DNA of 64,000 bases from Waddliaceae bacterium (GCA_963724325.1 CAVRUH010000007.1:138095-202094); one strand, 5' to 3'; positions 5,071-30,212 are shown, counted from the stretch's first letter. Made by a program: numbers and translations. Notes: a model not told the origin generated them from the letters alone.

Positions 5071-5685
5071 CATTTTTTTTACAGGACAAACTTATGACAC
5101 TCATAGAATCCAAAATGGAATTTGCCGAAAGGAACCATGCGGTACTTCTATCCCTAGAGGCTCAGATTGTAGCGCACTATCAAAAACGTCCTCGCCTTCA
5201 TGATCACAATGTGATTCGCGTTTTAGAGGCTCTCATAAAGCACTTTAGGGCTTTAGCGACAAATTTCCCATTGCCTCAGCATTCATTATCTGAATTCGAG
5301 GGTGAAATTTATCTTAGCATTCAATACAATCTAGAAAAATCGGAAGCCCTAACTCCGAATGATTCCTGTGTCCTTTTAAAGTTCCTCAAAAAATCTGTAG
5401 AGCTAAACAACAAGAGATCGGGCTCACAGGGTTACTTAAACTTCATCAGCCGCTTCATCGAAGTTGAAATAGAGGATTAGAAACCCGAGTCACTCACCTT
5501 ATTAACATTAAAATATGTGAGTTAGGCTTCCGCATTCCCTAAATGGTTATTTTCAAGAAAAACTTATTTGTTTTTACTCTTCAATAACACAATTGATTTT
5601 CAGTGACTTATCAGCTTTAAAGCATAATCTTCACGTGTTCAAGAAGAGCCTTCGTTCGCTTCGCTCACTACGGCCAGATGCGCCC
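5029..5685 (+). repeat. ~657-bp direct repeat, copy A (tRNA 3' part, 128-aa ORF and ~200 bp downstream)
   Basis: Aligns by eye with 13176-13833 with only scattered substitutions. Homology ends at GGCCAGATGCGCCC. Confidence 0.85.
5094..5480 (+). CDS. Conserved 128-aa hypothetical protein, copy 1 (tRNA-linked family)
   Basis: ORF starts 24 nt after the tRNA. A near-identical copy lies at 13241-13627, a truncated copy at 18414-18620 and relics at 15908-16171 and 29887-29913. Confidence 0.6.
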   Translation: MTLIESKMEFAERNHAVLLSLEAQIVAHYQKRPRLHDHNVIRVLEALIKHFRALATNFPLPQHSLSEFEGEIYLSIQYNLEKSEALTPNDSCVLLKFLKKSVELNNKRSGSQGYLNFISRFIEVEIED

Positions 5686-5941
5686 TCCCTTATTTTTTGC
5701 CTTAGCGAGCGCAGCGTGCGAAGGCATTTCTACACAAGAAGTCGAATTCACCAATTAGGCTCTTCGGGCAGACGACAACTGAGTAATTGATATTTTTGAA
5801 CCAAAACAATGCTCGAGAGGATATGAAAAAGACGAAACAAACACCAGCTATGATATCCTTATGAAATTAAGGAATGGATTCACTCGTAAAAATAAAATAT
5901 AAGATTACAGTAAAAAATATAAATTTAAAAAATAGGAGAAT

Positions 5942-6658
5942 TTACTCATTTGAATTTACTGCCTCAGTTTTTCCAAAGAATTGATTATATGCATCTTCGG
6001 AAACAAAAAACTGCTTCCAATATTTTTCGTTATAAAGATGGTCTTCGGAGGTTATGTTCTTACTCACTAGTTCTATTCCTGACTTATACGTGTTTTTACG
6101 GTTTTTAAGTTCGTTTTTGATTGCTGCAAGTTTAATGATCTTCTGAATAGAAATTTTTTCGATTTCATCAACAACAGATTTCCCTGAAATCTTTGAAAGT
6201 AAATCCGTTTGTTGGAAGTAAAAATTTCTATATTCTTTATGACCAGCGCTAATCGTTAAATTTAGATATACTAATGCCAAGAAAGGGTCTAGATTTTCAT
6301 TAGCATACATTTGAGACACTTCAAATAAAGCTGGGGGATATCCCAAAGAGGCAGCCATTTTAAACTGCTGATTTGCCGCTTTCCTGTTTATTGATGTCCC
6401 AGTTCCTGATAACGAACACTGACCTGCAATATACATAGCAATCTCATCGCCATCAAGAGCAGCATCAAGAACCTTGCTAAGTTCAAATGTATCAGAAGTT
6501 TGAACGCTTTGCAGAAACTCTTCTAAGCCTTTTTTTTCTGTATTAGATAGCTGGAAACCATCTGAAAGATCGCTTTTAGGTGATTCTGAAGAATGGACAG
6601 TTGACGATCCCAATGCCATTGCAAATACAGTCATTCCTATTGCTATAAGTTTAAACAT
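5942..6658 (-). CDS. Exported Sel1-like repeat protein
   Basis: Start chosen at MFKLIAIGMTVFAMALG, with AAGGAG upstream. GTGTSINRKAANQQFKMAASLGYPPALFEVSQMYAN resembles a Sel1/TPR repeat. Confidence 0.5.
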   Translation of the reverse strand: MFKLIAIGMTVFAMALGSSTVHSSESPKSDLSDGFQLSNTEKKGLEEFLQSVQTSDTFELSKVLDAALDGDEIAMYIAGQCSLSGTGTSINRKAANQQFKMAASLGYPPALFEVSQMYANENLDPFLALVYLNLTISAGHKEYRNFYFQQTDLLSKISGKSVVDEIEKISIQKIIKLAAIKNELKNRKNTYKSGIELVSKNITSEDHLYNEKYWKQFFVSEDAYNQFFGKTEAVNSNE

Positions 6659-7035
6659 ACAAGACACTCCTTTACAATTAGTTAGACTAGCATATACAAA
6701 TATCAACAAAACATCAAACTATTAAATCGTTTAATTGTTTGACTTTCTTGAATGATCATGCCAATCTTGTGGCATAAACTCAAAAAAAGGTGGGTCTTGG
6801 TTGTTACAAAGCGAAAAGTATCCGGAGGCAAGCGCCGTGATACAGGGAGAAAATGCCTAGATACATTTTTAAGTTTGAAGCAAACTTGCCTTAAGCTGCA
6901 TATTAATTTTATTACATTTCTTAAAGACAGGGTGTGTGAGCAAAACGAGATTCCTCGGCTTGCTGAAATCATTCGCGGGCGTTCTTCAAAATCCCAAAAA
7001 ACCACTGAGGCCACTTAGAACCAAACTAGGTCCAA

Positions 7036-7083
7036 TTCACAGACATAGGTAACACTTTGATTCACAAACATAGGTAACACTTT
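7036..7083 (+). repeat. Tandem 23-mer TTCACA(G/A)ACATAGGTAACACTTT x2: IS-end-like sequence
   Basis: Two adjacent copies 50-95 bp upstream of the truncated transposase start. The same 21-mer (ACAGACATAGGTTACACTTTT) recurs at 18611-18631 at the edge of another IS relic. Confidence 0.6.
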
Positions 7084-7131
7084 TCAAAATATGGTATAAT
7101 ACTCTCATCATTAACAATTTAGGGAGTATTT

Positions 7132-8148
7132 ATGCCTTGGGAGAACTTGAAAGTGGAAAATCTTAGGTTAAAACTGATTCAATCCTTCTTGAAGGGTGAA
7201 GAGACAATGACAGACTTATGTTTAGAGAATGGAATAAGTCGAAAAACTGGGTATAAATGGTTAGCGAGATATGAGAAATATGGGGCCACTGTGCTTATGG
7301 AATGCAATCAATTGGAAACTTGGCTTTTTGAATCACCAGAGCCTTCTGAAACAGCATCGACTAATGCAGCACACTGCATAAAATGTTGGCGTGATTATCT
7401 TGAAATTAAAGATGCTTACTATGGGGATTTTGAGGAGTTTGAGTTGCCTGAGCCGAAAGAGGGAGAAATTCTGCAAGATTATATCATGCGCATGGCAAGG
7501 TTGGTTGAAGAGGAAGGAAAAGGGTCTAGACTTGAGTGGCGTGCGCTCAAATCCTTTTTGGGTTACATGCGAAATTTGGCTCATGAAGAAATTGCTTTCA
7601 TCGAGCAAATCTTTCCTTTTAAAATGAATATCCACGATTCAAGGATTATTCGACTGATTGAGCCGGAGGTTTACCCGATCTCACAGGCAATTGCCGCGGA
7701 CATTCTCAAGGAACTGGCCAGGATGTGTAAATATGGAAGGCCGAATGCTAAGCATGGGGCTGCTGAAGCACTTGGGTTGTGCTGGTTGTGTTTATCAGCA
7801 TCGCGCATGCGATTGCCTATCACTCTCACTGATATTCATGGCACGAAAAAAACGTCAGTTTTTGCCGATGAAAAATGTGCTAAATTGCTGGTACCAACTA
7901 TCTTTGGAAATAGGTCTCTAAGAATCTCGCGACGACTGGCAAAATACCTGTCAGCGCTTGCTGGGATTTCATCAATAGATCCAAGAAAAACTATTCTGCA
8001 GAGGCCTAAGAGGTCATTAATGAGAGTATTGGATAGAGCTATTGAAAATCTTAGACTCGATCCAAAATTAGGAAATATAACTTTTGTAACCTTAATTTCT
8101 TCGCCCGACATCTCGGGTGGCGATCATCGTTATGTCCGTAATTCTTAA
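7132..8148 (+). pseudogene. Chimeric ORF: IS481-type transposase HTH N-terminus (~60 aa) fused to an unrelated ~280-aa region
   Basis: MPWENLKVENLRLKLIQSFLKGEETMTDLCLENGISRKTGYKWLARYEKYG is the typical N-terminus of IS481-family transposases, but no DDE core follows. The C-terminal part has only faint tyrosine-recombinase-like spacing (SASRMR...LLVPT...ITFVTL) and lacks HxxR. Confidence 0.4.
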
Positions 8149-8242
8149 TAGATAAAAAGTGTCCATCGCTGTGCCGACGTGATTCGATCCATTTCATTTA
8201 CAATGAGCGCAATTCCGAAATTAACAACATCAGGAGGCGCCA

Positions 8243-8448
8243 ATGAGCGATTATCAGTATTTGGATATAAATCAAATTGTAGAGGGTGGCAATACCCCTT
8301 TTCATTAGGGCAATTACGTCACTACCTAATTATGCGGCACAAAAATAATCTTGAGATTGCAGTCCGAAAGATTGGAAAGCGGCTGTATTTGCGTAAGGAT
8401 CTTTTTGAACAATGGATAGAAGATCAAAAGGAGAGGAAAAATGGATAA
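8243..8448 (+). pseudogene. AlpA/Xis-type HTH (excisionase-like) gene, frameshifted
   Basis: AGGAGG plus ATG at 8243 gives MSDYQYLDINQIVEGGNTPFH then a stop. The +1 frame continues LGQLRHYLIMRHKNNLEIAVRKIGKRLYLRKDLFEQWIEDQ, the HTH_17/excisionase pattern. Confidence 0.5.
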
Positions 8449-8819
8449 TTTTCTCCTCGATGAAAAAGGTGTTTGGTTTGCGCCACCCACACATTCCCTT
8501 GGTAGATCATCACGGAAGCAAGGGAACCCTGCAAGATTGGCAACAATATATTGCCAAATTTTGTGTGGACAATTCGCGACTTGGCTTTTGTGTAAGTGTG
8601 GGGTTTACTTCACCCCTTCTTTATTTGTTAGGGGAAGAAAATGGAGGTTTTAACCTTCGAGGACCGAGCAGCGGAGGCAAAACAACTGCGCTAAAAGTTG
8701 GTCTCTCAACTTATGGAAGTGAAAAGATGCTCCATTCGTGGCGAGCTACATCAAACGGTCTTGAATCAATTGCGGCCCTTCACAATGATTGTCTCCAAGG
8801 AGTTGCAAGTCTTACTTAG
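8412..8819 (+). pseudogene. DUF927-type island primase/helicase, truncated fragment
   Basis: NSRLGFCVSVGFTSPLLYLLGEENGGFNLRGPSSGGKTTALKVGLSTYGSEKMLHSWRATSNGLESIAALHNDC matches the Walker-A region of DUF927 proteins. The ORF ends directly afterwards. Confidence 0.55.
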
Positions 8820-9183
8820 GAAAAATGGATATTCTGATGCAAAGGAAATATCAGCCAAACTCATTGAGCTCTATTCCCGACAGAATCAACGCTTGGAAGA
8901 GGACATTCAAAAGCTAATTAAGCAAAAGCTTACGAATGACACATCAAATAAACTCACCTTCATGCTTGGTTTGATCCCTACAGTGGATAACACAGACAAA
9001 GTCCTGAAATATGAGCGCTCCCTACAAAAATCGATTTTCCAGAACCTCCTTATGTTGAAAAAACTGCAAGGGGCTTTCTAGAAATGGGTCTGTTTTGGAA
9101 AAATGCAAAGTTAAAAAAACTGTCCTATGACTATGGCGACCTTCTCTAAGTGTATGGGGCAATGTCACTTGCAATTAGGAGGA

Positions 9184-10191
9184 TCAGAAGGTGCCATAGA
9201 GGTAGTTCCAATATGCCGTGAATATTTCAGACTGTTCTGAGGTCAGAGGCTCAACAATAATAAAGCTTTCATCACTGCGTGTAAATGAAGATTGTGACCA
9301 GTTTGCCGAACCATTAACCAAAATACTGTTATCGATGCACATAAGCTTATTATGCATGAAGCTTAATTTTGGGTTGACCTTAACCTCTATCCCTGCCGCC
9401 ATTAGCTTTGGTAGATTTCCACCAAAATCAGGTGCTACCACCTGTACTTTTATTCCTCGTTGGTGGGCTTTAATTACTGCATTTGCAAGATCATTGTTGG
9501 TCCAAACCATCATGGCAATATGGATGCTTGTATTCGCTTGATCGATTTTTTCAATGAGAAATTGTTTAGATTGCTCGTTGATTGACTTTTCTACTTTTTT
9601 TTGTGGAAACCCATCATGAGGCAGAAGACAAAAATAGATGTCTTGACTGAGTAGAGAAATAAGTAATGGTCCATGTTCGGTTCGGTGAGCACTTAAGCGA
9701 AATATATCTGCTTCGTGATGAAGATATTGCGCTAACTCAGTTGAATTAAATCTTACCATTAAATTTTCTTGGGTTTGATATGCAGATGTTGTAAAGTTTG
9801 CGGATCCAATCCAAATTTCACTTTCATCTACAACCAGTATCTTGTGATGAAGATGACCTTCTCCTGTCGTCCTCGTCACAATTTCAATATTTGGCAGCTT
9901 TTTGCTTGCAATTTCACCTAAATGGTCTCTATCGATCACGACTGTGACTTTTAATCCCTCGTTTGCTTTCTGATTGAGTGCTGCGATAATTTCGGGATCA
10001 GATAGGCTGAATGTAATAATCAGAATTGATTTTTCAGCGTGAAGAATGCTTTCCTTTATCGAAACGCTTAAGTGTTTACGGTCTTGGGTATGATATAGCT
10101 GTGCGTCAGCTGCTACTGTAGCTTCAAGGCTGCCTACGCAAAATACCATAGCTGCTAATAGACTGAAAATTGATAATTTAAATTTTAACAT
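9184..10191 (-). CDS. Secreted phospholipase D-family protein (two HKD motifs)
   Basis: 335 aa with a signal peptide. HKD motifs HHKILVVDESEIWIGSANFT and HNKLMCIDNSILVNGSANWS. Confidence 0.85.
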   Translation of the reverse strand: MLKFKLSIFSLLAAMVFCVGSLEATVAADAQLYHTQDRKHLSVSIKESILHAEKSILIITFSLSDPEIIAALNQKANEGLKVTVVIDRDHLGEIASKKLPNIEIVTRTTGEGHLHHKILVVDESEIWIGSANFTTSAYQTQENLMVRFNSTELAQYLHHEADIFRLSAHRTEHGPLLISLLSQDIYFCLLPHDGFPQKKVEKSINEQSKQFLIEKIDQANTSIHIAMMVWTNNDLANAVIKAHQRGIKVQVVAPDFGGNLPKLMAAGIEVKVNPKLSFMHNKLMCIDNSILVNGSANWSQSSFTRSDESFIIVEPLTSEQSEIFTAYWNYLYGTF

Positions 10192-10205
10192 GGTTAACCT
10201 TCCTT

Positions 10206-11165
10206 TTAATTATTCCAAGCTTGCAATAGATTTTGTCTCAATTTATCTCTCCTCATGGGGTCGAATGTAGAAGATTTGATTAAATTGCGAAGTTCGAGCT
10301 CCCAAATCTTAAGCTTGCCAGGCTGAATTTTTGTATAACGTTTTATGATAAGCGGTGATGTAGGATTAAGTACCCCACTAATGCCTAAAACAAGTCGCAA
10401 TTCTTGTGGAAATTCATCTGAAGGAGTGTCGAGGAAATATTCACTGATCAATTGATTCTCAGCAATGAATCCATTGGGATATGATGCATACCCCACTGTA
10501 TTTCCAAAAGCATATAAAGAGACAGAGCTATCAAAAAATTGCAGAAGAACGCCGGCTTTACTGTCCAGATGTTGATGTGAGATAGTATAAGCCACCTCTA
10601 TCAATGATGAGTCCATTCCAAGTTCTTCGAACATGTGTTTCAAGTCCTTTCGCTGTTGATAGGTGTCGCTACCTACATTCTTCGTAAAATTTAAGACTGA
10701 GTTTAACCCTAGGCGGTTGTGATTCGAGTAGATGCAGAAGTTCAAGGGGAAAGTACTTTCTGCGACCAACTGCGAATAGTGTATTTCACTTACAAATACC
10801 CGTGAAAAAACTTCTAGAGATTCTAGAAAGTTGTTTTTTTTAAATGGCGTTGAAACGAAATGAAAATCCTTTCTGATGGGCACATCTAGGACCTCTTCGA
10901 CAATTATACGAATAATGTCTTGGTAAACTAGAAAATCTAAACTGTCTCCATGATATCCCATGAAGCTGATATTTTCCTGAGCTATAGCTTTATCGAATAA
11001 CTCACGGTAATCTAATCCAACACCTTTTCCTTTCAGATTATACTTAATCTGATCGAGTCCAACAAATGCAACATATTGCTTTGAAGGAGATTCAAATTCA
11101 GCACCATGGATTCTGATGGTCCCACAAATAAATAACAAGCTTAAAAGTAGGATTTTATTATTCAT
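10206..11165 (-). CDS. Exported hypothetical protein, paralog A
   Basis: 319 aa with a signal peptide. Shares FMGYHGDSLDFLVYQDIIRIIVEEVLDVPIRKDFHF and LLQFFD blocks with the adjacent ORF. Confidence 0.6.
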   Translation of the reverse strand: MNNKILLLSLLFICGTIRIHGAEFESPSKQYVAFVGLDQIKYNLKGKGVGLDYRELFDKAIAQENISFMGYHGDSLDFLVYQDIIRIIVEEVLDVPIRKDFHFVSTPFKKNNFLESLEVFSRVFVSEIHYSQLVAESTFPLNFCIYSNHNRLGLNSVLNFTKNVGSDTYQQRKDLKHMFEELGMDSSLIEVAYTISHQHLDSKAGVLLQFFDSSVSLYAFGNTVGYASYPNGFIAENQLISEYFLDTPSDEFPQELRLVLGISGVLNPTSPLIIKRYTKIQPGKLKIWELELRNLIKSSTFDPMRRDKLRQNLLQAWNN

Positions 11166-12180
11166 TTTTTTCTCTCCACATGTTCAATAACAATTCACGA
11201 TACTGTACGACTTTTGTTTCATCGTAAGGCAGTGTTCTGATTGCTTCACGTAAGTTAGATTCATACTCATTGATTAGTTCGGGATCATTCCTGTCAAAGC
11301 GCATGATATATAGAGGGGAATACGGATTTAGAGTGACGGAGTTGTTAATGACAAGCCGGAATTGTGCAGGAAAAGCTGTAGAATTAACGCCAAGGAATAT
11401 TTCGGACATTCTTTTCTCATTGAGAATTGGACGTCCGCCGGGCAAGGCATTATAGCATAATTGATTTATCAAATCATAATGATTTTGAAATGCATTGTGA
11501 TGAGAAAAGTCGAAGAATTGGAATAACACAGCATTATCCATGGTCATCAAAGGGTTGCCTATTGCAAATAAATCAGGTATCGCTTCGGTTGGTATTCCTA
11601 AAGAATCAAATAAATAATTTAGTTGAGTTTGGAATCCAACGGTCGTTGCAGATCTATTCCTTGTAAACCAGTAGACAGTGCATTCCCCAAAGTTATCGAA
11701 ATTCCCAAAGAGTGAATAATTCATCGACAACAACTGCTCTCGTTGTTCTGGTAACGCGTCAATCACTGCAGGATAGTCTTTCAGGAATTGCTCCTCACTT
11801 TCCCGATTTAGCATAGGTTTTCCTGGGATGCGCAGAAAGTGAAAGTCTTTTCTAATATGGATCTCGCAAATTTCCTCTATTATTATCCGAATAATATCTT
11901 GATAAATACGAAATCCTTGAGTGCTGCTATGGTATCCAAAAAAACCAAGCTCTTCGTGGGGAATGATGTGCTCGAAGAAATTGCGATGCTCCAAAGACAA
12001 CCCGTTTGTCTTCAGCGCTTGCAATATTTTCTCGTAATTGTAAAATCCGCAAAAGCGATTTGTTGGGGATGCATATACGGCTTCGGTTCGAATCGGCATA
12101 TCGAAATCTACGATTGCCGGAGTGGCAAGCAATGATAAATTACAAAGTGCAATTAAAATAAATAAAATTAATCTAATCAT
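11158..12180 (-). CDS. Exported hypothetical protein, paralog B
   Basis: 340 aa with a signal peptide. FFGYHSSTQGFRIYQDIIRIIIEEICEIHIRKDFHF is paralogous to 10206-11165. 8-nt overlap with it. Confidence 0.6.
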   Translation of the reverse strand: MIRLILFILIALCNLSLLATPAIVDFDMPIRTEAVYASPTNRFCGFYNYEKILQALKTNGLSLEHRNFFEHIIPHEELGFFGYHSSTQGFRIYQDIIRIIIEEICEIHIRKDFHFLRIPGKPMLNRESEEQFLKDYPAVIDALPEQREQLLSMNYSLFGNFDNFGECTVYWFTRNRSATTVGFQTQLNYLFDSLGIPTEAIPDLFAIGNPLMTMDNAVLFQFFDFSHHNAFQNHYDLINQLCYNALPGGRPILNEKRMSEIFLGVNSTAFPAQFRLVINNSVTLNPYSPLYIMRFDRNDPELINEYESNLREAIRTLPYDETKVVQYRELLLNMWREKNE

Positions 12181-12331
12181 AATTATTTAACCAATATATT
12201 TAAGATGAATACATTTTAACAATTATCAATTTATAAGTCAATCATAAACATGCATTTTTATATCGATTTGAATGGACCAATGCAATATGCTTTGTGGGGA
12301 TAAGTCTAAATTCAACCATAAAGGAGAAATT

Positions 12332-12925
12332 ATGTTGAACAGTTTTATCCGAAAGTTTTTATTTATCATTGTTCTTACGACATCGCTGTCATCCCCTATT
12401 TTTGCTGTGGATGACTTTCAAGTTGAGTATCAACCACAGGTCATCGAAAAAGTAATTCAGTTTGAGAAGAAAAGCATCTTAAAGCAAAAAGCAAATGGAT
12501 ACCTATATGTCGAAGTGTCTCGAGATTTTATTGCCGAGGCTCTTCCTCTAATTGATGCCCCGGGAAAAATTGTACACCCGAGTCATTATACTAGCAAGAA
12601 AGGGATTGGAGCCCATATCAGCATTATTTATGAAAATGAGTTGATTGAACATGAAATCTGGGAGATCGATGAGTTGGGGCAAGAGTTCACATTCTCGGTC
12701 ATGGAGTTGAGGACGGTAAAACTAAATGACAATAACAAGATGAAAAAACTTTGGCTTTTGGCAGTAGCTGCTCCCGAGTTAGAGAAACTTCGTGAGGGTT
12801 ATGGTCTATCATCCCGTTTAAAAAACCATGATTTCCATATAACAATAGGAACTCAAGTACCTGGTAAAGTCTATGTTTTATTCGATGAGATAATCATTGA
12901 AGAGGAGCTGGAAGAAGCAGCATAA
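12332..12925 (+). CDS. Exported 2H phosphoesterase-superfamily protein (two H-x-S/T-x motifs)
   Basis: Start at ATG 12332 with AAGGAG upstream. N-terminal hydrophobic signal. HISI (GAHISIIY) and HITI (HDFHITIG) are spaced ~80 aa apart, as in LigT/cyclic phosphodiesterase folds. Confidence 0.6.
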   Translation: MLNSFIRKFLFIIVLTTSLSSPIFAVDDFQVEYQPQVIEKVIQFEKKSILKQKANGYLYVEVSRDFIAEALPLIDAPGKIVHPSHYTSKKGIGAHISIIYENELIEHEIWEIDELGQEFTFSVMELRTVKLNDNNKMKKLWLLAVAAPELEKLREGYGLSSRLKNHDFHITIGTQVPGKVYVLFDEIIIEEELEEAA

Positions 12926-13175
12926 GGCTGATTCCAAAGATAAAATCGATTTGGTAGCCTAACAACAGGGGATTCGAATGCCTCTTTTGTGCTTTTGCTC
13001 AACTTCAGTTTAAGCACGACTTTCACAACTATCCTTCGCGTTGCAATGGCGGTGCAATGATTTACCTATTTATCCAATAATATCCATCAGAAACCAGTTG
13101 CAATTTGATTGCATATCCTTTAGCATGTTACTCATAGCGGTTGGATGGTGTTGATTGGAGTGGAAGTCCCCCTCC

Positions 13176-13217
13176 CTCATAACCCGCGGGTCACTGGTTC
13201 AAGTCCAGTTTGCCCCA
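13176..13217 (+). repeat. tRNA-Met 3'-part copy 2 (42/42 nt)
   Basis: Identical to 5029-5070. No matching 5' acceptor strand lies upstream, so it is not a functional tRNA. Confidence 0.9.
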
Positions 13218-13240
13218 CATTTTTTTTACAGGACAAACTT

Positions 13241-13627
13241 ATGACACTCATAGAATCCAAAATGGAATTTGCCGAAAGGAACCATGCTATACTTCTCTCA
13301 CTGGAGGCTCAGATTGTAGCGCACTATCAAAAACGTCCTCGCCTTCATGATCACAATGTGATTCGCGTTTTAGAGGCTCTCATAAAGCACTTTAGGGCTT
13401 TAGCGACAAATTTTCCATTGCCTCAGCATTCATTATCTGAATTCGAGGGTGAAATTTATCTTAGCATTCAATACAATCTAGAAAAAACGGAAGCCCTAAC
13501 TCCGAATGATTCCTGTGTCCTTTTAAAGTTCCTCAAAAAATCTGTAGAGCTAAACAACAAGAGATCGGGCTCACAGGGTTACTTAAACTTCATCAGCCGC
13601 TTCATCGAAGTTGAAATAGAGGATTAG
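13241..13627 (+). CDS. Conserved 128-aa hypothetical protein, copy 2
   Basis: Differs from copy 1 at about 2-3 residues (AV>AI, KSE>KTE). The longer track ORF from 13145 reads through the pseudo-tRNA and is rejected. Confidence 0.6.
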   Translation: MTLIESKMEFAERNHAILLSLEAQIVAHYQKRPRLHDHNVIRVLEALIKHFRALATNFPLPQHSLSEFEGEIYLSIQYNLEKTEALTPNDSCVLLKFLKKSVELNNKRSGSQGYLNFISRFIEVEIED

Positions 13628-13948
13628 AAACTGGAGTCACTCACCTTATTCACATTAAAATATGTGAGTTAGGCCCTCCGCGTACCCTCAATGGTTATTT
13701 TCAAGAAAAACTTATTTGTTTTTACTCTTCAATAATGCAATTGATTTTCAGTGACTTATCAGCTTTAAAGCATAATCTTCACGTGTTCAAGAAGAGCCTT
13801 CGTTCGCTTCGCTCACTACGGCCAGATGCGCCCGGCGTTATTAAAGTAGACCCAACTGTCTAGCTAAAAAGAGGAACATTTATTATTATGTGAAAGTTTG
13901 CGAAGTAATACCGAAAAATAATGTTCTCCATTGAGATTAGAGAGATTA

Positions 13949-15758: not shown

Positions 15759-15907
15759 AATGTCAATTATTTTACAGTAATTGTTCTAATAGTGCAACTA
15801 AAAAGACGAGCTAACGGCAATTAGGAGTTTGTTAAATAAAAGATCAAAAATAGAATAGGGTGATTTTGGCCCCAGAAATATTTTTTTTGAGCTCCAAACT
15901 GATTTGA

Positions 15908-16171
15908 GTTTTTGATCAGCTGATAAAATATTTCAGGGCAAAAGCAACTAATTTTCCATTCCAAGAGTCTAAATTTTCTTTGCCTATTGAAAATGATTTA
16001 TATGATTCGCTTAAGGAATGTCTTGAGGAAACTGAAGGCAAAACAGCTAATGAAGCATATAACATTTTTAAATTCTTAAAAAAATCAGTCGAATTTTGGA
16101 ACAGAGAAGGGGGCTCTCAAGGCTGCCTTACATATATATCGCGCTTCATAGATGTTGAAGAAAAAAAATGA
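15908..16171 (+). pseudogene. Relic of the 128-aa family (C-terminal two thirds, diverged, no proper start)
   Basis: LIKYFRAKATNFP...FKFLKKSVEFWNREGGSQGCLTYISRFIDVE aligns with LIKHFRALATNFP...LKFLKKSVELNNKRSGSQGYLNFISRFIEVE. Upstream, TTTGGCCCCA plus a T-run (15865-15888) resembles the tRNA 3' end. Confidence 0.55.
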
Positions 16172-18179: not shown

Positions 18180-18349
18180 ACACACACGAAGCCTCTCTTT
18201 TTATTGCATTTCCCGTGCACTGGCGGTGCAACGGTGCAGTACTTTATCCATTTTCAACCGTCAAAATTCGGTAGCAATAAATACATAAGTCATTTATTAT
18301 CTTACTCAAAGCGGTTGAGTGGTGTTGATTGGAGTGGTAGTCTTCCTCC

Positions 18350-18391
18350 CTCATAACCCGCGGGTCACTGGTTCAAGTCCAGTTTGCCCCA
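18350..18391 (+). repeat. tRNA-Met 3'-part copy 3 (42/42 nt)
   Basis: Identical to 5029-5070. The ~40 nt upstream are homologous to the region upstream of copy 2, not to the tRNA 5' half. Confidence 0.9.
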
Positions 18392-18413
18392 CATTTTTTT
18401 ACAGGACAAACTT

Positions 18414-18620
18414 ATGACACTAATAGAATCCAAAATGGAATTTGCCGAAAGGAATCCTGCAATACTTCTCTCCCTAGAGGCTCAGATTGTAACGCACTAT
18501 CAAAAACGTCCTCGCCTTCATGATCACGATGTGATTCGCGTTTTAGAGGCTCTCATAAAGCACTTTAAGGCCTTAGCGACAAATTTCCCATTGCCTCAGC
18601 AGGTGCGGTTACAGACATAG
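18414..18620 (+). pseudogene. 128-aa family copy 3, truncated after ~62 codons at an IS end
   Basis: Homology to copies 1 and 2 stops at 18601 (NFPLPQ|QVRLQT*), where the IS-end 21-mer region begins. Confidence 0.8.
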
Positions 18621-19395
18621 GTTACACTTTTATTGTTAAAATGTTATATAAAAAGCAGGGGGCAACTAGCCCCCTGCCAAAAAAACATCCGTCACCCATC
18701 GTCTCTCGGTCGCAGCGGGGAGTTTTCTTCTTGGTACCAATAATTATACTATGTATGGTCAAAAGATGCATTAGGAAAATACACAAGAAAACATCTAGAA
18801 TTTTGAGTTTTGAGGGAGCTGTGGGGGTTTCTTCTTGGTCGGGGGTTTGGGGGCTGGCCCCCAATATATTCACTTCCGATCGTTGTCATTAGCGCTGCCT
18901 CCTTCTCTTAACTTTTGGTTTTTCAAGCCCTTCCTTTACAAGTTTTCCTAAGTATATAGGTCCATAATAAACATCATATTCCCCCTGTTCATTAGCCTTA
19001 AGACCAACATATTCTCCAGTAAGCGTTTGTCCAATATAATGATCATTCTGATGTAACCATAAACAACCACTTGCACAAATCTTTCTAACAATCATTTTTT
19101 GTGTGTCGTATTCTGGTTTCCTTAAAACTCCATCCCAAGTCCGTAAGGATTTAGTATAAACACTTGCTGGTGTTTGCATATTCAAGGCTTCATGAGGCCT
19201 TTCAAAGTTATATTCGTCTAAGAATTTGCTGTTCGCTTGTATTTGCAATACAAGGGATGCTTTAGCAGGGTTTGCTACTTCTTGTTGTAGTGTAGAATGG
19301 AATCTCTCGTGCCTTCCATTTTCCTCAGGATGTCCTGGATTTATCCACTCAGGGATAACTCCAGCTTTAATTAGATTGGCGTGATTTAGTCGGAA
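18602..19395 (-). mobile_element. IS481-family element relic (end sequence plus transposase C-terminal ~170 aa)
   Basis: ORF 18889-19395: GVIPEWINPGHPEENGRHERFHSTLQQE...FERPHEALNMQTPASVY is the end of an rve/DDE core (the E region). The terminal 21-mer lies at 18611-18631. The N-terminal two thirds are missing. Confidence 0.7.
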
Positions 19396-19687
19396 TAGCA
19401 ACGTAGACAAAGTGAGGGATTTGTGTGGTGATTTCGTGATAAGCCAAAGCAGAGATCAGGCATATAATTCCGTTAGGAATTTTTTTCAAAACAAGAACAA
19501 GATCAGGCTAGGAAAAGTCTGGGATTTCAATTAGCCCATAGACTCCTCTAGCTAATTGTTCCAAGAGCCCCTCATCTCACATCTGATATAGTGTGCGTGG
19601 GTGAATGCCCAATTGGATAGCTTCACCCGAGCGGAGGAGTCCCTGGTGTGATTTAAAGTGCTTGATCGCTATCTGTTTTGCATTCAT
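19395..19687 (-). pseudogene. AbiEi-type antitoxin N-terminal fragment with an internal stop and frameshift, fused to the IS relic
   Basis: Hand translation gives MNAKQIAIKHFKSHQGLLRSGEAIQLGIHPRTLYQM*..RDEGLLEQLARGVYGLIEIPDFS*PDLVLVLKKIPNGIICLISALAYHEITTQIPHFVYVAIP, the AbiEi_4 N-domain pattern. Confidence 0.55.
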
Positions 19688-21285: not shown

Positions 21286-21310
21286 ACGACCTCCTTATCT
21301 GTTCATTATT

Positions 21311-21354: not shown

Positions 21355-21396
21355 CGAATATTAACGTAAAAAGTTTAAAGAAACAAGGAGAGTCTA

Positions 21397-21939
21397 ATGA
21401 CGAACACAACAAATTCTTCAAGTCAAAAACAAATCAGAATGCCAGTACCTGTCGATTCCTTAATCACCATTCTACATAATATACAATTGAAAATTGATTC
21501 AGCTGCTGGCGCTGCAACAGCGCTAGAGCTCCGGCTGCGAATTATCGCTCAGATAGAAGAGAAAGTTCGAGATGAACTAAAGAAAAATACAAAAGACCCT
21601 TTTCATCAGGCAACTCTTAAACATCTCATTTCAGCAGTCCTTGAGGTATTTCAAGATAAACTTGATGCAACCGAGCAAAGTATAATAAAACAATGCCGCC
21701 CCCCTCGCAATAAAACTGCGCATGGCAGCTTTGCTGAGTTAATGATCGAACTGGCAGGGGAGGCTTCTGGTAGACAGCTTGATAATCGCACATTGAAACC
21801 ATTACCTTTAGCAGAAGATGATATAATTGAAGGAGCAATATGCATTGAGAGAAATGGTGGTTTAGAGGATTTTTCAAAACTTGCAAACCGTGCAGTATCA
21901 ATTCTTGAAGAAAAAATTATACGCCATTTAAAACCTTAA
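21397..21939 (+). CDS. HEPN-domain protein candidate (R-N-x3-H-G motif)
   Basis: 180 aa, predicted helical. CRPPRNKTAHGSFAELM (R104-H109, nt 21706-21723) fits the canonical HEPN RNase motif R[NSHDK]xxxH. Confidence 0.5.
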   Translation: MTNTTNSSSQKQIRMPVPVDSLITILHNIQLKIDSAAGAATALELRLRIIAQIEEKVRDELKKNTKDPFHQATLKHLISAVLEVFQDKLDATEQSIIKQCRPPRNKTAHGSFAELMIELAGEASGRQLDNRTLKPLPLAEDDIIEGAICIERNGGLEDFSKLANRAVSILEEKIIRHLKP

Positions 21940-22210
21940 TTGTAATTGTAAAATGACTCATCATCAATCGGACCTATTGAATGGCCCAATGCTGATTGTC
22001 CTCATGATAAAACCATTGTCATTTTTCAACTTTTGCATACGTTTTTATCATTTGCAGATCATGCAAAATCCGTGGACCACTGGTGGGCCAAATAGGGGCA
22101 GCAAGTGGCATGAAATAGTATCAAATTGGCTTGGACGAAAAGGGCTTTTCGCTGTATAGTGGTTGATGTCAGCTACTGTATGTTGCGGTGGTTTATTAAC
22201 AGGGGATGGC

Positions 22211-22252
22211 CTCATAACCCGCTGGTCACTGGTTCAAGTCCAGTTTGCCACA
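22211..22252 (+). repeat. tRNA-Met 3'-part copy 4 (40/42 nt)
   Basis: CTCATAACCCGCTGGTCACTGGTTCAAGTCCAGTTTGCCACA. About 140 bp upstream are homologous to the region upstream of copy 5 (for example GGACCA..GGTGG.CCAAATAGGG). Confidence 0.85.
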
Positions 22253-22273
22253 CTTTTTTCTGTGTTGGAATTC

Positions 22274-22660
22274 ATGATTTCTAAAGTGAAGAAAATATTC
22301 ATTATTTTGTATGCCCTCCCGAACCCTATTGTGGACACTGAAGAAGATCGATGCAATTATGTAATTACAAAGTACATATTTGCATTCTTCATGGTTGTAG
22401 GTAGTATTTTAACATCCTATATGATGGCTGATTTAATAAATGAATTGGTTCCGTTAACATTAATAAAAATTAAAATTATGGAAATTATTTCAGTGTCCAT
22501 ATTGACTGTTGGAGCTTGGGGGAGTCTTAGATGGCCAGCACAAACTACGAAAATAAAGTCCCATGCAGAAGATTTTGACGATTATATTTCGAGGATATTC
22601 TCTTTTTGTGGTTTTTTGATGACCTTGGTTTCATATCAATTAGTCCCCAATGATTTGTAG
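22274..22660 (+). CDS. Small membrane protein (hypothetical)
   Basis: Start set at MISKVKKIF downstream of the tRNA fragment. 3-4 hydrophobic segments. No motif. Confidence 0.35.
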   Translation: MISKVKKIFIILYALPNPIVDTEEDRCNYVITKYIFAFFMVVGSILTSYMMADLINELVPLTLIKIKIMEIISVSILTVGAWGSLRWPAQTTKIKSHAEDFDDYISRIFSFCGFLMTLVSYQLVPNDL

Positions 22661-26504: not shown

Positions 26505-26528
26505 AAAAAGAAACAGGGGATTGTGTTT

Positions 26529-27320
26529 ATGGAAACATCTTTAGGTAAACGAATAAAAGCCTTGCGTGAGGCTCTGAGAATAAGCCAAGAGGAATTATCG
26601 CAAAGATTAGCATTGGATAGAGCTTCGCTGTCTTTAATCGAAAATGACAAACGCTCATTGAAAGCTGATGAACTTATTTTACTATCAAAATCTTTGAATA
26701 TTTCGATTGATGAGTTGTTAAATCTCAAGTCGTCAACAGAAGTTATTTTGGAACAGGCTCAGAAGCCAAAAGAAAAAAGAAATGACTTACGGATTAGCGT
26801 TCCAAGAAAAAACCTGAAAAAGTTTAAGGAAGTTCTTCTCTATATATTGGGAAAGGTTGGAGCAAAACCAAATGTGGGTGAAACTGTCTTGTATAAGCTG
26901 CTGTACTTTATAGATTTCAACTATTACGAGAAATATGAAGAACAACTCATTGGAGCCACATACATCAAAAACCATCATGGCCCTACCCCAATCGAGTTTC
27001 AGTCCATTGTAAATGAGATGATAGAAAACAAAGAAATCGAAGTTGTGAAAAGTAAATATTTTCAGCATCTCCAAAAAAAATATCTACCTCATCAAGAACC
27101 CGATCTTTCTGTCTTTAATGCAAATGAGATCAAAGTGATAGATGATGTGTTGCAAAAATTATCTGGCATGAATGCTTCAACAATAAGTGAATACTCTCAT
27201 CAAGATGTCCCATGGATGGTCACATCGGAAAGGCAAAAAATTGATTATGAATCTGTATTTTACCGAACCCCTGCATATAGCGTAAGAGAGTATAGCAACG
27301 ATGAAATTCAAGCACATTGA
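26529..27320 (+). CDS. XRE-family HTH fused to a Panacea (DUF4065/SocA-like) antitoxin domain
   Basis: N-terminus LGKRIKALREALRISQEELSQRLALDRASLSLIENDKR (HTH_XRE). C-terminus GETVLYKLLYFIDFNYYEKYEEQLIGATYIKNHHGPTPIEF (DUF4065 signature). Confidence 0.75.
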   Translation: METSLGKRIKALREALRISQEELSQRLALDRASLSLIENDKRSLKADELILLSKSLNISIDELLNLKSSTEVILEQAQKPKEKRNDLRISVPRKNLKKFKEVLLYILGKVGAKPNVGETVLYKLLYFIDFNYYEKYEEQLIGATYIKNHHGPTPIEFQSIVNEMIENKEIEVVKSKYFQHLQKKYLPHQEPDLSVFNANEIKVIDDVLQKLSGMNASTISEYSHQDVPWMVTSERQKIDYESVFYRTPAYSVREYSNDEIQAH

Positions 27321-27793: not shown

Positions 27794-29542
27794 TTAATTT
27801 ACATTGTACGTAAATTCTACCGATTCCTTTCTTCTTTCATCTTTTGGGACATAAGTTTTTAATAGATTTCCGAGTAAATTTCCTTTTTTAATCTCATAAG
27901 TTTTAAAATAACGATTAACACGTTGTTTATTAGCTCCCCAATAACTACCAAAACCATCGGGTTGATTAATCCAATCCCAATCTTTCTTTTGGACCATGCC
28001 GGTAACTCCTGAGGAAACATTATTTTCAAGAAATGGAATATGACGGAAATTCATATATTCTGTATCAATAAAGTAAATTCCTTCTTCACCTTGCGAATCC
28101 CTTCCTAACATGAAATTGTCGCCAAGAAAGTCTCCAAAACCGGTTGCTTCTAATATTTTGAGAAATTCAGTGACTTCTTCTCTTGTAGTGCCTCGTTCCA
28201 GAGGAGTGATATTTTCCGCAAAAATAGTTACTTGATCGGAAGTTAATTCTAAATTGTAAGGACTTACTACTGCAGGAACAGAAGTGATTCCTTCATTCAA
28301 TACAGCAATTTTTTTGGGAACCTTAATATGTTTTAAGCCTAGCTCCTCAGCTATTCTTTTTATGTAATTTGCCCCTTGAATTCTACCTAAGTCCCTTCCT
28401 TTATCCCAATAAGCTCCCTTAGGATGATTTTGATCAACAAATTCCTGCTTAGTCAGCAACCTACCAGATTCTCTTAAATCTTCAAAAAATTCTATTCCAA
28501 TTTGTTGAACCTCTTCATTGCTCATAGAATGTCTAAAAATACTAGGTCCTAGGGTCCTCTGTTCTATTTTTGTGCGCAATTCAAGATTTTTATGAGGACA
28601 TTTCTTGTTAAGCGCTTGAATGAAGTTTGTTTCAAGAATAAGGGCCTTCTCAATGATTTTTTCATTGACCGCATTGAATGAATTCGCAGTTTGAGTAAAA
28701 TTAAGTATTTGAAAAATTATAGATTCACTAAGACCATCATAAAATCCTCGAATCTCTTCTTCTGTAACTTCTTCATTCTTGATGATGGCTATTAATTTTT
28801 TTGTATTTTGCTCCTCTTCAAGGCGACCAGTATCTTCTTTAAGCCAATTTAAAAATTCTGGATTTGTTAATTCGTCAACTGGTTTAGGCTCTATCTTAAC
28901 ACCAACATTTGAAGGAACAAGATTTGACGAATTTTCTTTTGCTTCCGGTTCTTCAACTTTCTTTAGATATTCTTCATCTCGTTCCCTTGCTTCGTTTTCA
29001 AGTTCGGACTTTCTTCTTTCTTCTTGAACCCTTAGTGCCTCTTCGCGTTCATTTTTTAAGTTTTTGAATGCTGACCGAGCTAAGTGACCCCTAAATAGGC
29101 TTTGAATTTTTGTTGCGGCGATGTTTTTTGTTTGTTCTGTTGGTTCGTTAATCTTTTCCTGTGAAGATATGTCATTAATATTTTGATCTAAGGAAGAATT
29201 AGAGGGTTGATCATTGGAAGGAATAGAAGATTCAAGCAGAGCAAAACGAATATTTTCTTTAGACTTAATAAATAGGTTTCTTATGGATTTTGAGAAGAGT
29301 GCTAAACATAAGGTGCATATGACAGCAACAGTTCCCAATAATCCTCTTCCAAAATGTTCTAAACCGGAGAAGGCGCGTTCTCTTTTTTCAATAATGCGAT
29401 ATTGACGACCTTTATAATCAGAGCATACTCTATGTCCTTTTTCATCAACGAGTCTATTCGTGCTGTTAAATTTCGTCGCTAAAACCCATTTATCACTAAG
29501 GCTAATTTCGTTTATTATGCTAATTATTTTAAACCCTGGCAT
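27794..29542 (-). CDS. Membrane-anchored protein with a perfect IQ motif, a coiled coil and a kinase-like C-terminal domain
   Basis: 582 aa. TM GLLGTVAVICTLCLALF. IQSLFRGHLARSAF (nt 29066-29107) fits IQxxxRGxxxRxxF. Glu/Lys-rich coiled coil. C-terminal GFGDFLGDNFMLGRDSQGEEGIYFIDTEY resembles the catalytic D..N / ID.E of Kdo/RIO-type atypical kinases. Confidence 0.6.
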   Translation of the reverse strand: MPGFKIISIINEISLSDKWVLATKFNSTNRLVDEKGHRVCSDYKGRQYRIIEKRERAFSGLEHFGRGLLGTVAVICTLCLALFSKSIRNLFIKSKENIRFALLESSIPSNDQPSNSSLDQNINDISSQEKINEPTEQTKNIAATKIQSLFRGHLARSAFKNLKNEREEALRVQEERRKSELENEARERDEEYLKKVEEPEAKENSSNLVPSNVGVKIEPKPVDELTNPEFLNWLKEDTGRLEEEQNTKKLIAIIKNEEVTEEEIRGFYDGLSESIIFQILNFTQTANSFNAVNEKIIEKALILETNFIQALNKKCPHKNLELRTKIEQRTLGPSIFRHSMSNEEVQQIGIEFFEDLRESGRLLTKQEFVDQNHPKGAYWDKGRDLGRIQGANYIKRIAEELGLKHIKVPKKIAVLNEGITSVPAVVSPYNLELTSDQVTIFAENITPLERGTTREEVTEFLKILEATGFGDFLGDNFMLGRDSQGEEGIYFIDTEYMNFRHIPFLENNVSSGVTGMVQKKDWDWINQPDGFGSYWGANKQRVNRYFKTYEIKKGNLLGNLLKTYVPKDERRKESVEFTYNVN

Positions 29543-29824
29543 TTTTCACCTAATTGATTACAAGTTAATGACTTTAAAGAAAATTGTAACAGATTAGATA
29601 ATTTAAATCAAGACCAAACTTCTACACCTCTACGCCATGAATGGCACTTTGTGACCAACAGGTTTAATCTGATAAATGTAAGAATTGGACCAACGGTGGA
29701 CCAAATAGGGACATCAAATTACATGATATCAGATAAAATTAGAATAGACTGAAAAGTCTTGAGGCTGCTATCTTGATTTATGTCAGCTCTTGTAGTAAGC
29801 GATAGTTTGAGGATCGCTGACAGA

Positions 29825-29866
29825 CTCATAACCCGTGGGTCATTGGTTCAAGTCCAGTTTGTTCCA
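29825..29866 (+). repeat. tRNA-Met 3'-part copy 5 (38/42 nt), followed by a relic of the 128-aa ORF start
   Basis: CTCATAACCCGTGGGTCATTGGTTCAAGTCCAGTTTGTTCCA. Downstream, ATGATACCCATAGAATTTGCCGAATAA (29887-29913) is MTLIESKMEFAE with a 12-nt deletion and a stop. Confidence 0.8.
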
Positions 29867-30212
29867 CTTTTTTACGGTACACACTTATGATACCCATAGA
29901 ATTTGCCGAATAAATCCCTAAAAAATATGCGACCGGTTCAGCACAGGTTTCATCTCATTTCACAAGATTTTCGGATGCATCAACATACTATTGAATTTTT
30001 ACTTTACAGCTTTACTCTGCTATTTATGTGAATCCAATAAACATCGTCTGTCTGGATAAAATAAATAATTTTGATTCTGGATTTTTCACAGCGCATGTGT
30101 TGGAGTATATGGAAATTTCAAATAAAATCTCCGTCTAGACATGGAATAGTTTTAGTATTATAGTGAGTAAATATGTTATCGTAGAACCTTTAGTTTTGGA
30201 GACCTTGTGGCA

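Follow-up and report, generated by a model that had tools for sequence, protein, structure and literature searches.

A putative tandem array of small islets at a chlamydial tRNA-Met gene, and the conserved 128-codon gene at its tRNA-proximal ends

The window analysed here, a stretch of 64,000 nucleotides from a Waddliaceae bacterium, reads as a region of a Parachlamydiales (Waddliaceae-like) chromosome in which five small islets, none with an integrase, stand in tandem behind one tRNA-Met gene. Four of the five att-bounded segments carry the same 128-codon gene, or what is left of it, at their left and tRNA-proximal end, and we refer to this gene as ORF128. The explanation that we consider likely is tandem accretion of islets integrated in tRNA-Met, with ORF128 as the tRNA-proximal gene of one islet lineage. 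The process as such is already known as tandem island accretion, of which the window is a tidy example.

A single tRNA-Met(CAT) was detected by ARAGORN and Rfam (69.9 bits). The att core corresponds to its 3' part, from the anticodon loop to the 3' end (5029-5071), and self-BLAST recovered this part five more times downstream (Table 1). All six cores begin at CTCATAACCCGC, which is the anticodon loop. The segments in the window hold two to nine genes each, use both strands and measure 1.6-8 kb, versus 0.6-3 kb for the islets of relatives. Their cargo is typical of islands and includes AbiEi/NTase, HEPN, Panacea-HTH, PLD, DUF927 and IS fragments.

Table 1. Features of the tRNA-Met locus, in positions of the window
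Feature	Position	Strand	Remarks
tRNA-Met(CAT), intact	4997..5071	+	ARAGORN, Rfam, self-BLAST, alignments
Segment S1	5072-13175		first gene is ORF128 copy 1
Spacer	5072..5093	+	22 nt: T-run (8 T) and AGGA Shine-Dalgarno
ORF128 copy 1, intact	5094..5480	+	128 aa, 14.9 kDa, pI 6.3
Non-coding stretch	5481..5694	+	common to copy 2 flank 13628-13842
Island arm type 1, right end of S1	13039..13175	+	
att copy 1	13176..13218	+	43/43 identical to tRNA-Met
Segment S2	13219-18349		first gene is ORF128 copy 2
ORF128 copy 2, intact	13241..13627	+	2 aa changes relative to copy 1
Diverged ORF128 pseudogene	15899..16171	+	inside S2
Island arm type 1, right end of S2	18214..18349	+	
att copy 2	18350..18392	+	43/43 identical to tRNA-Met
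Segment S3	18393-22207		first gene is truncated ORF128 copy 3
ORF128 copy 3, 62 codons left	18414..18601	+	
DDE (rve_3) transposase, C-terminal fragment	18889..19410	-	in DNA replacing the rest of copy 3
Arm type 2 before att copy 3	about 22140-22207	+	
att copy 3	22208..22259	+	arm type 2 upstream
Arm type 2 before att copy 4	about 29735-29822	+	
att copy 4	29823..29870	+	arm type 2 upstream
Segment S5			opens with 8-codon ORF128 relic; GNAT and NUDIX cargo
8-codon ORF128 relic, 12-nt deletion	29887..29913	+	start of S5
att copy 5, partial	31433..31468	+	lacks the 13 terminal nt of the tRNA; closes the array on its right

A sequence-only reading of this DNA had placed a 128-aa ORF directly behind tRNA-Met, which we confirm, at a distance of 24 nt, which is in fact 22 nt. 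No promoter-like site was found in this spacer and, at 22 nt, it is too short to hold a promoter between tRNA and ORF128. Across att core and spacer, copies 1 and 2 show no difference in 65 nt, and ORF128 starts 21-22 nt behind each tRNA 3' end. Copy 2 is, as described earlier, near-identical and equally spaced; the two genes are separated by five synonymous and two non-synonymous codon differences (dN/dS about 0.11). They are joined by a repeat of 667 bp (5029-5694 and 13176-13842, 97%), in which the 3' non-coding stretch is more diverged (12/214 nt) than ORF128 (7/387 nt). Homologous recombination or gene conversion may in part account for this repeat, in place of two independent integrations.

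The remaining copies are remnants. Copy 3 retains 62 codons (18414-18599) at 92% amino acid identity; homology stops at 18601 and the frame meets a stop at 18620. It had been said to be cut at about codon 62 by an IS end, and of this the cut holds and the IS end is not proven, the truncating DNA being unique within the window and containing only the transposase fragment listed in Table 1. The diverged C-terminal relic reported at 15908-16171 is real and begins at 15899 (tblastn E=1e-21). It corresponds to residues 40-125, has an in-frame stop close to its 5' end, and is 49% identical to copy 1 and 60% to the homologue at locus L081 (see below). It represents a second ORF128 lineage within S2, and two lineages with 49% identity in one array point to independent acquisitions. 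The 8-codon relic with a 12-nt deletion, assigned earlier to a fifth copy, is likewise genuine. The att copies at 22208 and 31433 are without ORF128. The former is followed, 14 nt past the T-run, by another co-directional ORF (22274-22660) encoding a 128-aa membrane protein, and behind the latter, at +27 nt, stands a Cass2/GyrI-like gene (31495-31977). A co-directional first ORF is found behind all six att copies of the window, 14-27 nt from the T-run or the truncated core.

ORF128 is a real gene under purifying selection, predicted to encode a cytoplasmic protein of six helices (AF2 model, pLDDT 93.8). That it has no recognisable motif, as remarked from the sequence, agrees with searches of curated families and solved folds, all of which came back empty: Foldseek against PDB and BFVD gave no structural neighbour (best E=0.2, TM 0.38), Pfam, NCBIfam and PADLOC scans of 97 family members gave no match, and neither did a PDB sequence profile search. 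The family comprises at least 541 clusters at 50% identity (E<=1e-3). Its members are mostly ordinary chromosomal genes of Chloroflexota, and hundreds of them are stand-alone genes in housekeeping surroundings, away from any mobile element. One JGI record labels a family member 'predicted transcriptional regulator'. The tRNA linkage is a trait of one chlamydial clade and not of the protein, and ORF128 appears to have been captured from this widespread, otherwise chromosomal family.

Close homologues (40-60% identity) are linked to tRNA-Met or att in seven of nine independent metagenomic loci from other Parachlamydiales, a frequency ascertained on the ORF and not on att sites, as the loci were collected by an ORF128 search. 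Whether homologues elsewhere are tRNA-adjacent had been put forward as a check, with a complete lack of tRNA linkage as the refuting outcome; they are linked in the close chlamydial clade, which therefore escapes refutation, and they are not in the wider family, which is mainly from Chloroflexota. An att followed by ORF128 is present at L001, L003, L007 and L081; L005 has a decayed att and a conserved spacer before the gene, L006 an arm motif upstream of it, L002 two real tRNA-Met genes with ORF128 at +69 nt, and L004 has ORF128 without a tRNA. In L003 and L007 the att core has the sequence of a Parachlamydia tRNA-Met. L081 contains a one-gene segment, att-ORF128-att, and at both L014 and L081 a different 74-aa gene occupies the same post-att position. 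In other subclades a conserved spacer of 105-160 nt separates att from ORF128. The gene is found next to att in subclades sharing only 40-50% identity, with changing cargo, and dN/dS is 0.12 between ORF128 of L001 and L003.

Every displaced att copy in the window has one of two conserved arm types directly upstream. Type 1 consists of tandem CGGTGCAA(T/C)G repeats, plus CTCATAGCGGTTGGATGGTG touching the att core, and is also found in L001, L007, L014 and L081; taken together, types 1 and 2 are conserved over the window, L001, L003, L007, L014 and L081. At L001, in a genome other than that of the window, the order is tRNA-Met end, Phage_integrase (E=1e-29), DUF1016, a 173-aa ORF, arm type 1, att and ORF128, which places ORF128 beyond attR and outside the integrase islet. 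No recombinase was found by Pfam scans of 27 ORFs from 5-32 kb of the window, and a tblastn search with the L001 integrase gave no match in the window. The window islets therefore lack the integrase that, according to the sequence-only reading, normally occupies this position, whereas L001 has one adjacent to its tRNA. The islets of the window look like remnants akin to cis-mobilizable elements (CIMEs), from which the integrase was lost.

The lepB-pncB-pncA-tRNA-Met synteny is conserved, and no ORF128 homologue was found in 64 chlamydial loci, among them a stretch of 6.8 kb downstream of the tRNA-Met in the nearest relative, whose tRNA is identical. Because of the att and tRNA linkage, the L001 integrase with the same arm and this absence in the nearest relatives, we regard ORF128 as island-borne and not as chromosomal flank. 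The earlier suggestion of an island-proximal gene in a family of related islands is upheld by the four segments, the seven loci and the absence behind the syntenic tRNA-Met.

We propose that small islets came in successively, through recombination by a tyrosine integrase in the anticodon loop. Each arriving islet would bring its own tRNA 3' half, which would restore tRNA-Met and push the previous half downstream. In one islet lineage this half would be contiguous with the T-run, the Shine-Dalgarno and the 128-aa gene, so that the unit of tRNA 3' part, T-run and ORF would be the tRNA-proximal end of the islet and would be copied whenever such an islet lands. A cognate integrase with the same arm survives in the related metagenomic islet at L001. 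ORF128 would have no promoter of its own and would be expressed by read-through from upstream, presumably from the tRNA-Met promoter if its islet is first in the array, and co-transcription with tRNA-Met is plausible. Such read-through would make ORF128 a moron-like passenger and not a part of the recombination machinery. The ordinary chromosomal contexts of the family in Chloroflexota also suggest a passenger.

It is unlikely that ORF128 is a passive flank, that is, an ancestral neighbour of tRNA-Met unrelated to islands and copied within the array by aberrant excision or by Campbell-type homologous recombination across the long repeat of tRNA 3' part and ORF. Such an origin would be in line with L002, where real tRNAs precede ORF128 and island signs are missing, with the chromosomal setting of the wider family, and with a 97% direct repeat that at 667 bp far exceeds the att core. 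The position of the ORF outside the integrase islet of L001, and the single attR before it there and at L003 and L007, are also compatible with an old chromosomal flank. However, ORF128 is missing behind the nearest relative's syntenic tRNA-Met, identical in sequence, and from all 64 chlamydial loci, and the array holds at least two ORF128 lineages. Furthermore, att copies flank the gene on both sides at L081, both full copies are under purifying selection, and the left boundary of every copy is an anticodon-loop crossover beside a conserved arm, which is the signature of site-specific and not of homologous recombination.

We consider it improbable that ORF128, and the 74-aa gene, belong to the island backbone and control the islet, for instance as directionality factor, integrase regulator or maintenance factor at att. 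The att-adjacent position persists across the divergent subclades while the cargo varies, an excised circle would have the gene on one side of attP and the arm on the other, and the JGI label would suit a regulator; against this, the protein is not basic, Pfam, NCBIfam and PHROG-independent structure searches matched it to nothing of the HTH, Xis or AlpA type, its gene at L001 is not part of the integrase islet, and hundreds of its relatives have no mobile element near them. Recombination directionality factors of the Xis/TorI/AlpA-like kind are small, basic DNA-binding proteins with a winged helix or HTH whose gene sits inside the integrase-bearing element, a description that does not fit ORF128, given its pI of 6.3, six-helix bundle, lack of any Pfam or structural match and location outside the L001 integrase islet.

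An equally doubtful speculation takes the tRNA-Met 3' half plus arm as a cassette-type site. The Parachlamydiales locus might then be an integron-like platform for gene capture that uses an ordinary tyrosine integrase to stack tiny modules behind the tRNA, the first gene of each being driven by the tRNA-Met promoter. Some modules would consist of one gene without a promoter, and ORF128, the 74-aa gene, the membrane protein and the Cass2-like protein would be examples.

That the arm and the tRNA 3' half form a tRNA-like RNA needed for transcription or processing of the ORF128 mRNA at displaced copies is very improbable: the short promoterless gap behind each tRNA 3' end and the recurrence, in the arm of copy 2, of 15 nt that immediately precede the real tRNA-Met speak for it, whereas shuffled sequences fold as well as arm plus 3' half (z = -0.23), alifold gives an unfavourable covariation term with covariation solely in the native T-arm, ARAGORN and Rfam detect the real tRNA alone and none of the copies, tandem direct repeats like those of the arm are typical of integrase arm sites, and other subclades have the 105-160-nt spacer. 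The 5' element that had been described as tRNA-like is the conserved arm of the island, which does not fold as a tRNA would.

Under the accretion reading, the lepB-pncB-pncA-tRNA-Met locus is a recombination hotspot in environmental chlamydiae, where miniature islets bring together genes of the toxin-antitoxin, defence and effector-like kinds. Other genomes can be mined with the att core and arm sequences, which are defined well enough for this. If the tRNA promoter does drive att-adjacent genes, the locus would show how promoterless cargo is expressed upon integration. The ORF128 family is large, has a confident fold and is entirely unannotated, and one of its clades has long been carried under purifying selection at the extreme end of mobile elements, so that the family deserves study of its structure and function.

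Integron cassette arrays are headed by an IntI-type integrase with attI and Pc, and their attC sites are imperfect palindromes that form single-strand hairpins. They may share with the window co-directional, putatively promoterless ORFs with a ribosome binding site just behind each recombination site, which one promoter upstream could express, and they share with L081 the single gene between two sites. Unlike integrons, the window has no integrase at or near its tRNA, the repeated site, made up of a tRNA 3' half and an arm, folds like shuffles and has no attC-type hairpin, and most segments contain several genes, which occupy both strands. Phage morons and lysogenic-conversion genes lie by att, and promoters may read across att junctions, as does Pcirc of ICEclc. 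ORF128 resembles these as a putative passenger gene at the very end of an element, its predicted expression set by the DNA across the junction; the element is not a phage.

In the tRNA-gene islands catalogued by Islander (PMC4383910), as proposed for the window, the island supplies a tRNA fragment that makes the gene whole again, and the fragment it displaces comes to lie at the far end. The crossover in the anticodon loop is shared with the window, whereas typical Islander islands carry an integrase beside the tRNA and the window segments none. The ssrA islands of Dehalococcoides stand in tandem behind one small RNA gene and are bounded by direct repeats of its 3' end (PMC3146451). As in the window, a conserved motif lies just upstream of each repeat and some integrase-less segments are read as CIMEs. 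The Dehalococcoides islands have a six-gene integration module with a serine recombinase adjoining attL, whereas here a tyrosine integrase is the cognate enzyme and ORF128 or some other small ORF adjoins att. Integrative elements and CIMEs also accrete in tandem, by site-specific integration, in the ICESt1/ICESt3-related arrays of Streptococcus thermophilus (reviewed in PMC5704250). The window differs from these in its target, a chlamydial tRNA-Met, in its very small segments (0.6-8 kb, with those of relatives), and in a tRNA-proximal gene that is a small uncharacterised ORF and not an integrase. In these arrays and, on our reading, in the window, elements integrated in succession behind a single target gene, at its 3' end, att direct repeats form the boundaries, and the older segments, with mixed cargo, have kept att and lost the integrase and transfer genes.

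The region has the anatomy of a tandem array of tRNA-integrated islands, the members of which have decayed to att-bounded remnants lacking an integrase. Self-BLAST of positions 4901-5900 revealed that the 3' part of tRNA-Met from 5029, the att core, is repeated at 13176, 18350, 22208, 29823 and 31433. Alignment of the six att copies with their flanks showed that all displaced copies start at exactly CTCATAACCCGC in the anticodon loop, and that each has one of two conserved arm sequences in front of it. In arm type 1, CGGTGCAA(T/C)G is repeated in tandem ~135 nt upstream of att, and these repeats are candidate integrase arm-binding sites. The five inter-att segments (S1-S5) measure 8.1, 5.1, 3.8, 7.6 and 1.6 kb, and no recombinase gene is encoded in any of them.

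The tRNA, the 128-aa ORF behind it (ORF128) and all the copies and relics described in the sequence-only reading were recovered by ARAGORN, Rfam, self-BLAST and, for the diverged relic, tblastn. The ORF does lie directly behind the tRNA, at a measured distance of 22 nt rather than the 24 nt first given. Copy 3 is indeed cut near codon 62; the truncating DNA, however, is not demonstrably an IS end. It is unique in the window, with neither a second copy nor a terminal inverted repeat found, and it holds only a C-terminal transposase fragment.

Features of the tRNA-Met array (positions without prefix are those of the window; L081 and L001 are loci with ORF128 homologues)
Feature	Position	Remarks
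tRNA-Met(CAT)	4997-5071	sole tRNA in the window (ARAGORN, Rfam)
Run of eight T and AGGA Shine-Dalgarno		in the 22-nt gap from tRNA-Met to ORF128 copy 1
ORF128 copy 1	5094-5480	128 aa; starts 22 nt past tRNA-Met
ORF128 copy 2	13241-13627	intact; spacing identical to copy 1; two amino-acid changes
ORF128 copy 3	from 18414	62 codons; homology ends at 18601
ORF128 stub	29887-29913	8 codons; 12-nt deletion
Diverged ORF128 relic	15899-16171	49% identity to residues 40-125 (E=1e-21); in-frame stop
DDE transposase fragment, C-terminal	18889-19410	in the DNA replacing the rest of copy 3
Arm type 1	13039-13175, 18214-18349	CTCATAGCGGTTGGATGGTG adjoins the att core
CGGTGCAA(T/C)G repeats	13039-13059, 18214-18233, L081:1831-1850, L001:2858-2880	
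Arm type 2		before the att copies at 22208 and 29823

The segments carry a 2H phosphoesterase, a DUF927 fragment, IS481-type fragments, and GNAT and NUDIX genes, together with cargo of toxin-antitoxin/defence type and of effector-like type. The former includes AbiEi (20553-21161) paired with a nucleotidyltransferase fragment (19778-20275) and a Swt1-like HEPN protein (21397-21939); an HTH-Panacea (SocA) antitoxin (26523-27320) is overlapped by a 122-aa partner (region to 27669). Effector-like genes encode a two-HKD phospholipase D (9184-10191), tandem paralogous unknowns of 319 and 340 aa (10206-12180) and a 582-aa protein with an IQ calmodulin-binding motif (27794-29542). Elsewhere in the window, two overlapping phosphoglucomutase-like gene fragments (59153-60100 and 63072-63953, minus strand) share ~60 nearly identical residues (ending in DTDHDRHG) and have two unrelated genes between them, suggesting that the gene was rearranged or duplicated.

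A word-indexed search of 5.8 billion proteins returned only three non-self homologues of ORF128; four further loci were found by a metagenome scan and one by a profile search (P0006/L081). Among these eight loci (L001-L007 and L081), L004 is the sole one without a tRNA signature. L002 has an initiator and an elongator tRNA-Met, followed by the homologue at +69 nt. The order is arm type 2, att and homologue in L003, and arm type 1, att, a conserved spacer as in L001 and a decayed homologue in L007. In L005 the gene follows a decayed att and this conserved spacer, and L006 has an arm motif upstream of a homologue broken by a palindromic insertion. A cognate tyrosine integrase (Phage_integrase, E=1e-29) exists in L001. 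This contig begins with the 3' end of a genuine tRNA-Met; the integrase gene comes next, then DUF1016 and a gene for 173 aa, and beyond these arm type 1 leads into a diverged tRNA 3' half, which 155 nt of spacer separate from the ORF128 homologue. In L081, arm type 1 and att precede the homologue; 175 nt further on comes a second att, with a different gene of 74 aa behind it. The att-proximal position of the gene thus recurs in other genomes. L003 and L007 have att cores that match a Parachlamydia tRNA-Met exactly, and the tRNA-Met of L001 is of Parachlamydiaceae type, so the linkage spans families of the Parachlamydiales and all three subclades of close homologues, which are 40-68% identical with one another.

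Several other features of these loci were observed. L081:1969-2633 is a minimal segment with one gene between att copies, and downstream of it lie an AbiEi fragment, an AEP-TOTE helicase, a TrbI fragment (a conjugation remnant), rpiA and tyrS. The att-to-ORF128 spacer of another subclade is conserved over ~150 nt (L001:3040-3196, L005:3400-3545, L007:305-465; TCCTGGGGCATCAGA...CCTGT..CAGGAGT...CACTTTGAGGCGTCA); it opens with an apparent second, decayed tRNA 3' end and may represent a promoter or an arm region. The surroundings of the islets are rich in palindromic MITE-like repeats (window 16172-16250; L006:6190-6470; L021:4440-4700, at another locus; L007:755-850), and the one interrupting the L006 homologue has duplicated its target.

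Searches of phages and plasmids by tblastn and a viral-contig scan gave no homologues, so ORF128 is not a phage or plasmid gene of those collections. Scanning GTDB genome contigs with the close-clade alignment gave no match either, in a collection that apparently lacks the window's own genome. In nine distinct distant contexts, the family member stands alone among housekeeping or metabolic genes with no conserved neighbour, and none adjoins a tRNA (six loci checked). The tRNA adjacency raised in the sequence-only reading is therefore a property of the close clade, L004 excepted, and not of the distant relatives.

Between ORF128 copies 1 and 2 there are differences at 7 of 387 positions (five synonymous and two non-synonymous codons; dN/dS 0.11) and, in their common 3' spacer, at 12 of 214. 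The diverged, att-linked homologues of L001 and L003 gave a dN/dS of 0.12. Judged from these substitutions, ORF128 is under purifying selection. With a close-clade profile, 541 cluster representatives matched at E<=1e-3, of which 202 also passed E<=1e-10; almost all of them are 125-140 aa long. In a 90%-clustered database there were 745 matches at E<=1e-5, all annotated as hypothetical, the named ones being from Anaerolineae/Chloroflexota. As already noted from the sequence, the protein has no recognised motif: the single protein matched nothing in Pfam, NCBIfam or PDB sequences, nor did a 97-member alignment in Pfam, NCBIfam or PADLOC. From that alignment AlphaFold2 predicted a six-helix model (pLDDT 93.8), for which Foldseek against PDB and BFVD found only insignificant helical-bundle matches, so that no function can be inferred. 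Nearly invariant positions are E22, D37, S101, W105 and G110-x-x-G-Y-L. The protein is mildly acidic (pI 6.3), with no signal or membrane segment. The family is thus large, well folded and wholly uncharacterised.

GNAT genes occur near ORF128 or its homologues in L005, L008/L009, L010 and segment S5. Such a partnership was dismissed as coincidence, since five of the nine distant contexts have no nearby GNAT and gene order varies. A role of ORF128 in the control of recombination is less likely, as the protein is not basic and bears no DNA-binding signature, the gene lies outside the integrase islet of L001, and its relatives are ordinary chromosomal genes.

The genes that flank the array, which encode a long LepB, a protein of 232 aa, PncB and PncA, assign the window to Chlamydiota. 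Their best match is a Waddliaceae MAG (LepB 67%, PncB 76%), followed by Parachlamydiaceae, and the lepB-p232-pncB-(pncA-p91)-tRNA-Met block is syntenic in several of the matching genomes. No ORF128 family member was found within the 10-kb flank of any of 64 chlamydial lepB loci, including L014, the tRNA-Met locus of the nearest relative. The L014 tRNA-Met is identical in sequence to that of the window, and the 6.8 kb read downstream of it holds no family member; its array consists of the tRNA and two att copies, one of which has arm type 1 in front of it. Directly behind both displaced L014 att copies lies a 74-aa gene (MERDFGEQPIKQIIEQHDL...; L014:2696-2917 and 4919-5140, minus strand), 95% identical between the two, without a Pfam match and with a third occurrence at L081:2657-2881. 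In L014 and L081 it takes the position behind att that ORF128 takes elsewhere.

That ORF128 is a passively duplicated chromosomal flank is hard to reconcile with three findings: two lineages (49% identity) occur inside the window's array, the gene stands alone between att copies in L081, and relatives lack it at the syntenic site. The same three findings are expected for a gene at the tRNA-proximal end of a mobile unit, as the sequence-only reading had proposed for an island-proximal gene. Upon integration in the anticodon loop, the tRNA 3' half left of each segment would come in with that segment, so that the tRNA 3' part, T-run and ORF would be one contiguous piece of island DNA. This would explain why att and spacer show zero differences over 65 nt between copies 1 and 2. 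Probably a single capture brought ORF128 from an ordinary chromosomal family into a lineage of tRNA-Met islets, where it may have remained the first gene after the tRNA 3' half that the island brings along.

The 22-nt spacer contains a ribosome-binding site and no promoter; when the surroundings of copies 1 and 2 were scanned for promoters and terminators, nothing informative rose above shuffles. From this spacer we infer that ORF128 must be transcribed from upstream: in the first islet of the array presumably from the tRNA-Met promoter, and in displaced copies by whatever reads through the arm. A co-directional ORF starts 14-27 nt past the T-run or truncated core at all six att copies of the window. 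Four of these ORFs are ORF128 (three copies and the stub); the other two are a gene for a membrane protein of 128 aa (22274-22660) and one that is Cass2/GyrI-like (31495-31977). Together with the 74-aa gene of L014 and L081, this makes placement for read-through look like a general design of the islets.

The suggestion of a tRNA-like 5' element found no support. Arm plus 3' half folds no better than shuffled sequence (z = -0.23), the covariation term is unfavourable over five orthologous arms, where the native T-arm alone shows compensatory changes, and ARAGORN and Rfam detect the real tRNA alone. The idea that arm type 1 is what remains of a tRNA 5' half plus promoter was likewise rejected, the alignment being weak (matches at about 10 of 22 positions). 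The 15-mer TTGCATATCCTTTAG occurs twice, immediately upstream of the real tRNA-Met (4980-4994) and within the arm of copy 2 (13110-13124). It is common to these two places alone, possibly through gene conversion or because the arm derives from the tRNA flank.

Integrase-less att-bounded arrays of this kind are described in the literature as site-specific accretion and cis-mobilizable elements (CIMEs) (PMC5704250). The logic of a regenerated tRNA and a displaced fragment is known from tRNA islands (PMC4383910), and tandem ssrA islands of Dehalococcoides follow the same pattern (PMC3146451). The window's array agrees with tandem accretion of tRNA islands or CIMEs in every testable respect. We found no paper on chlamydial tRNA-Met islands; the mechanism is familiar, and no prior description was found for this lineage, the environmental chlamydiae, and this target. 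The array lacks the IntI and attC-type hairpins that define integrons, but resembles them in its promoterless, co-directional first ORFs and in the single-gene segment of L081; in this respect the miniature islets are cassette-like.
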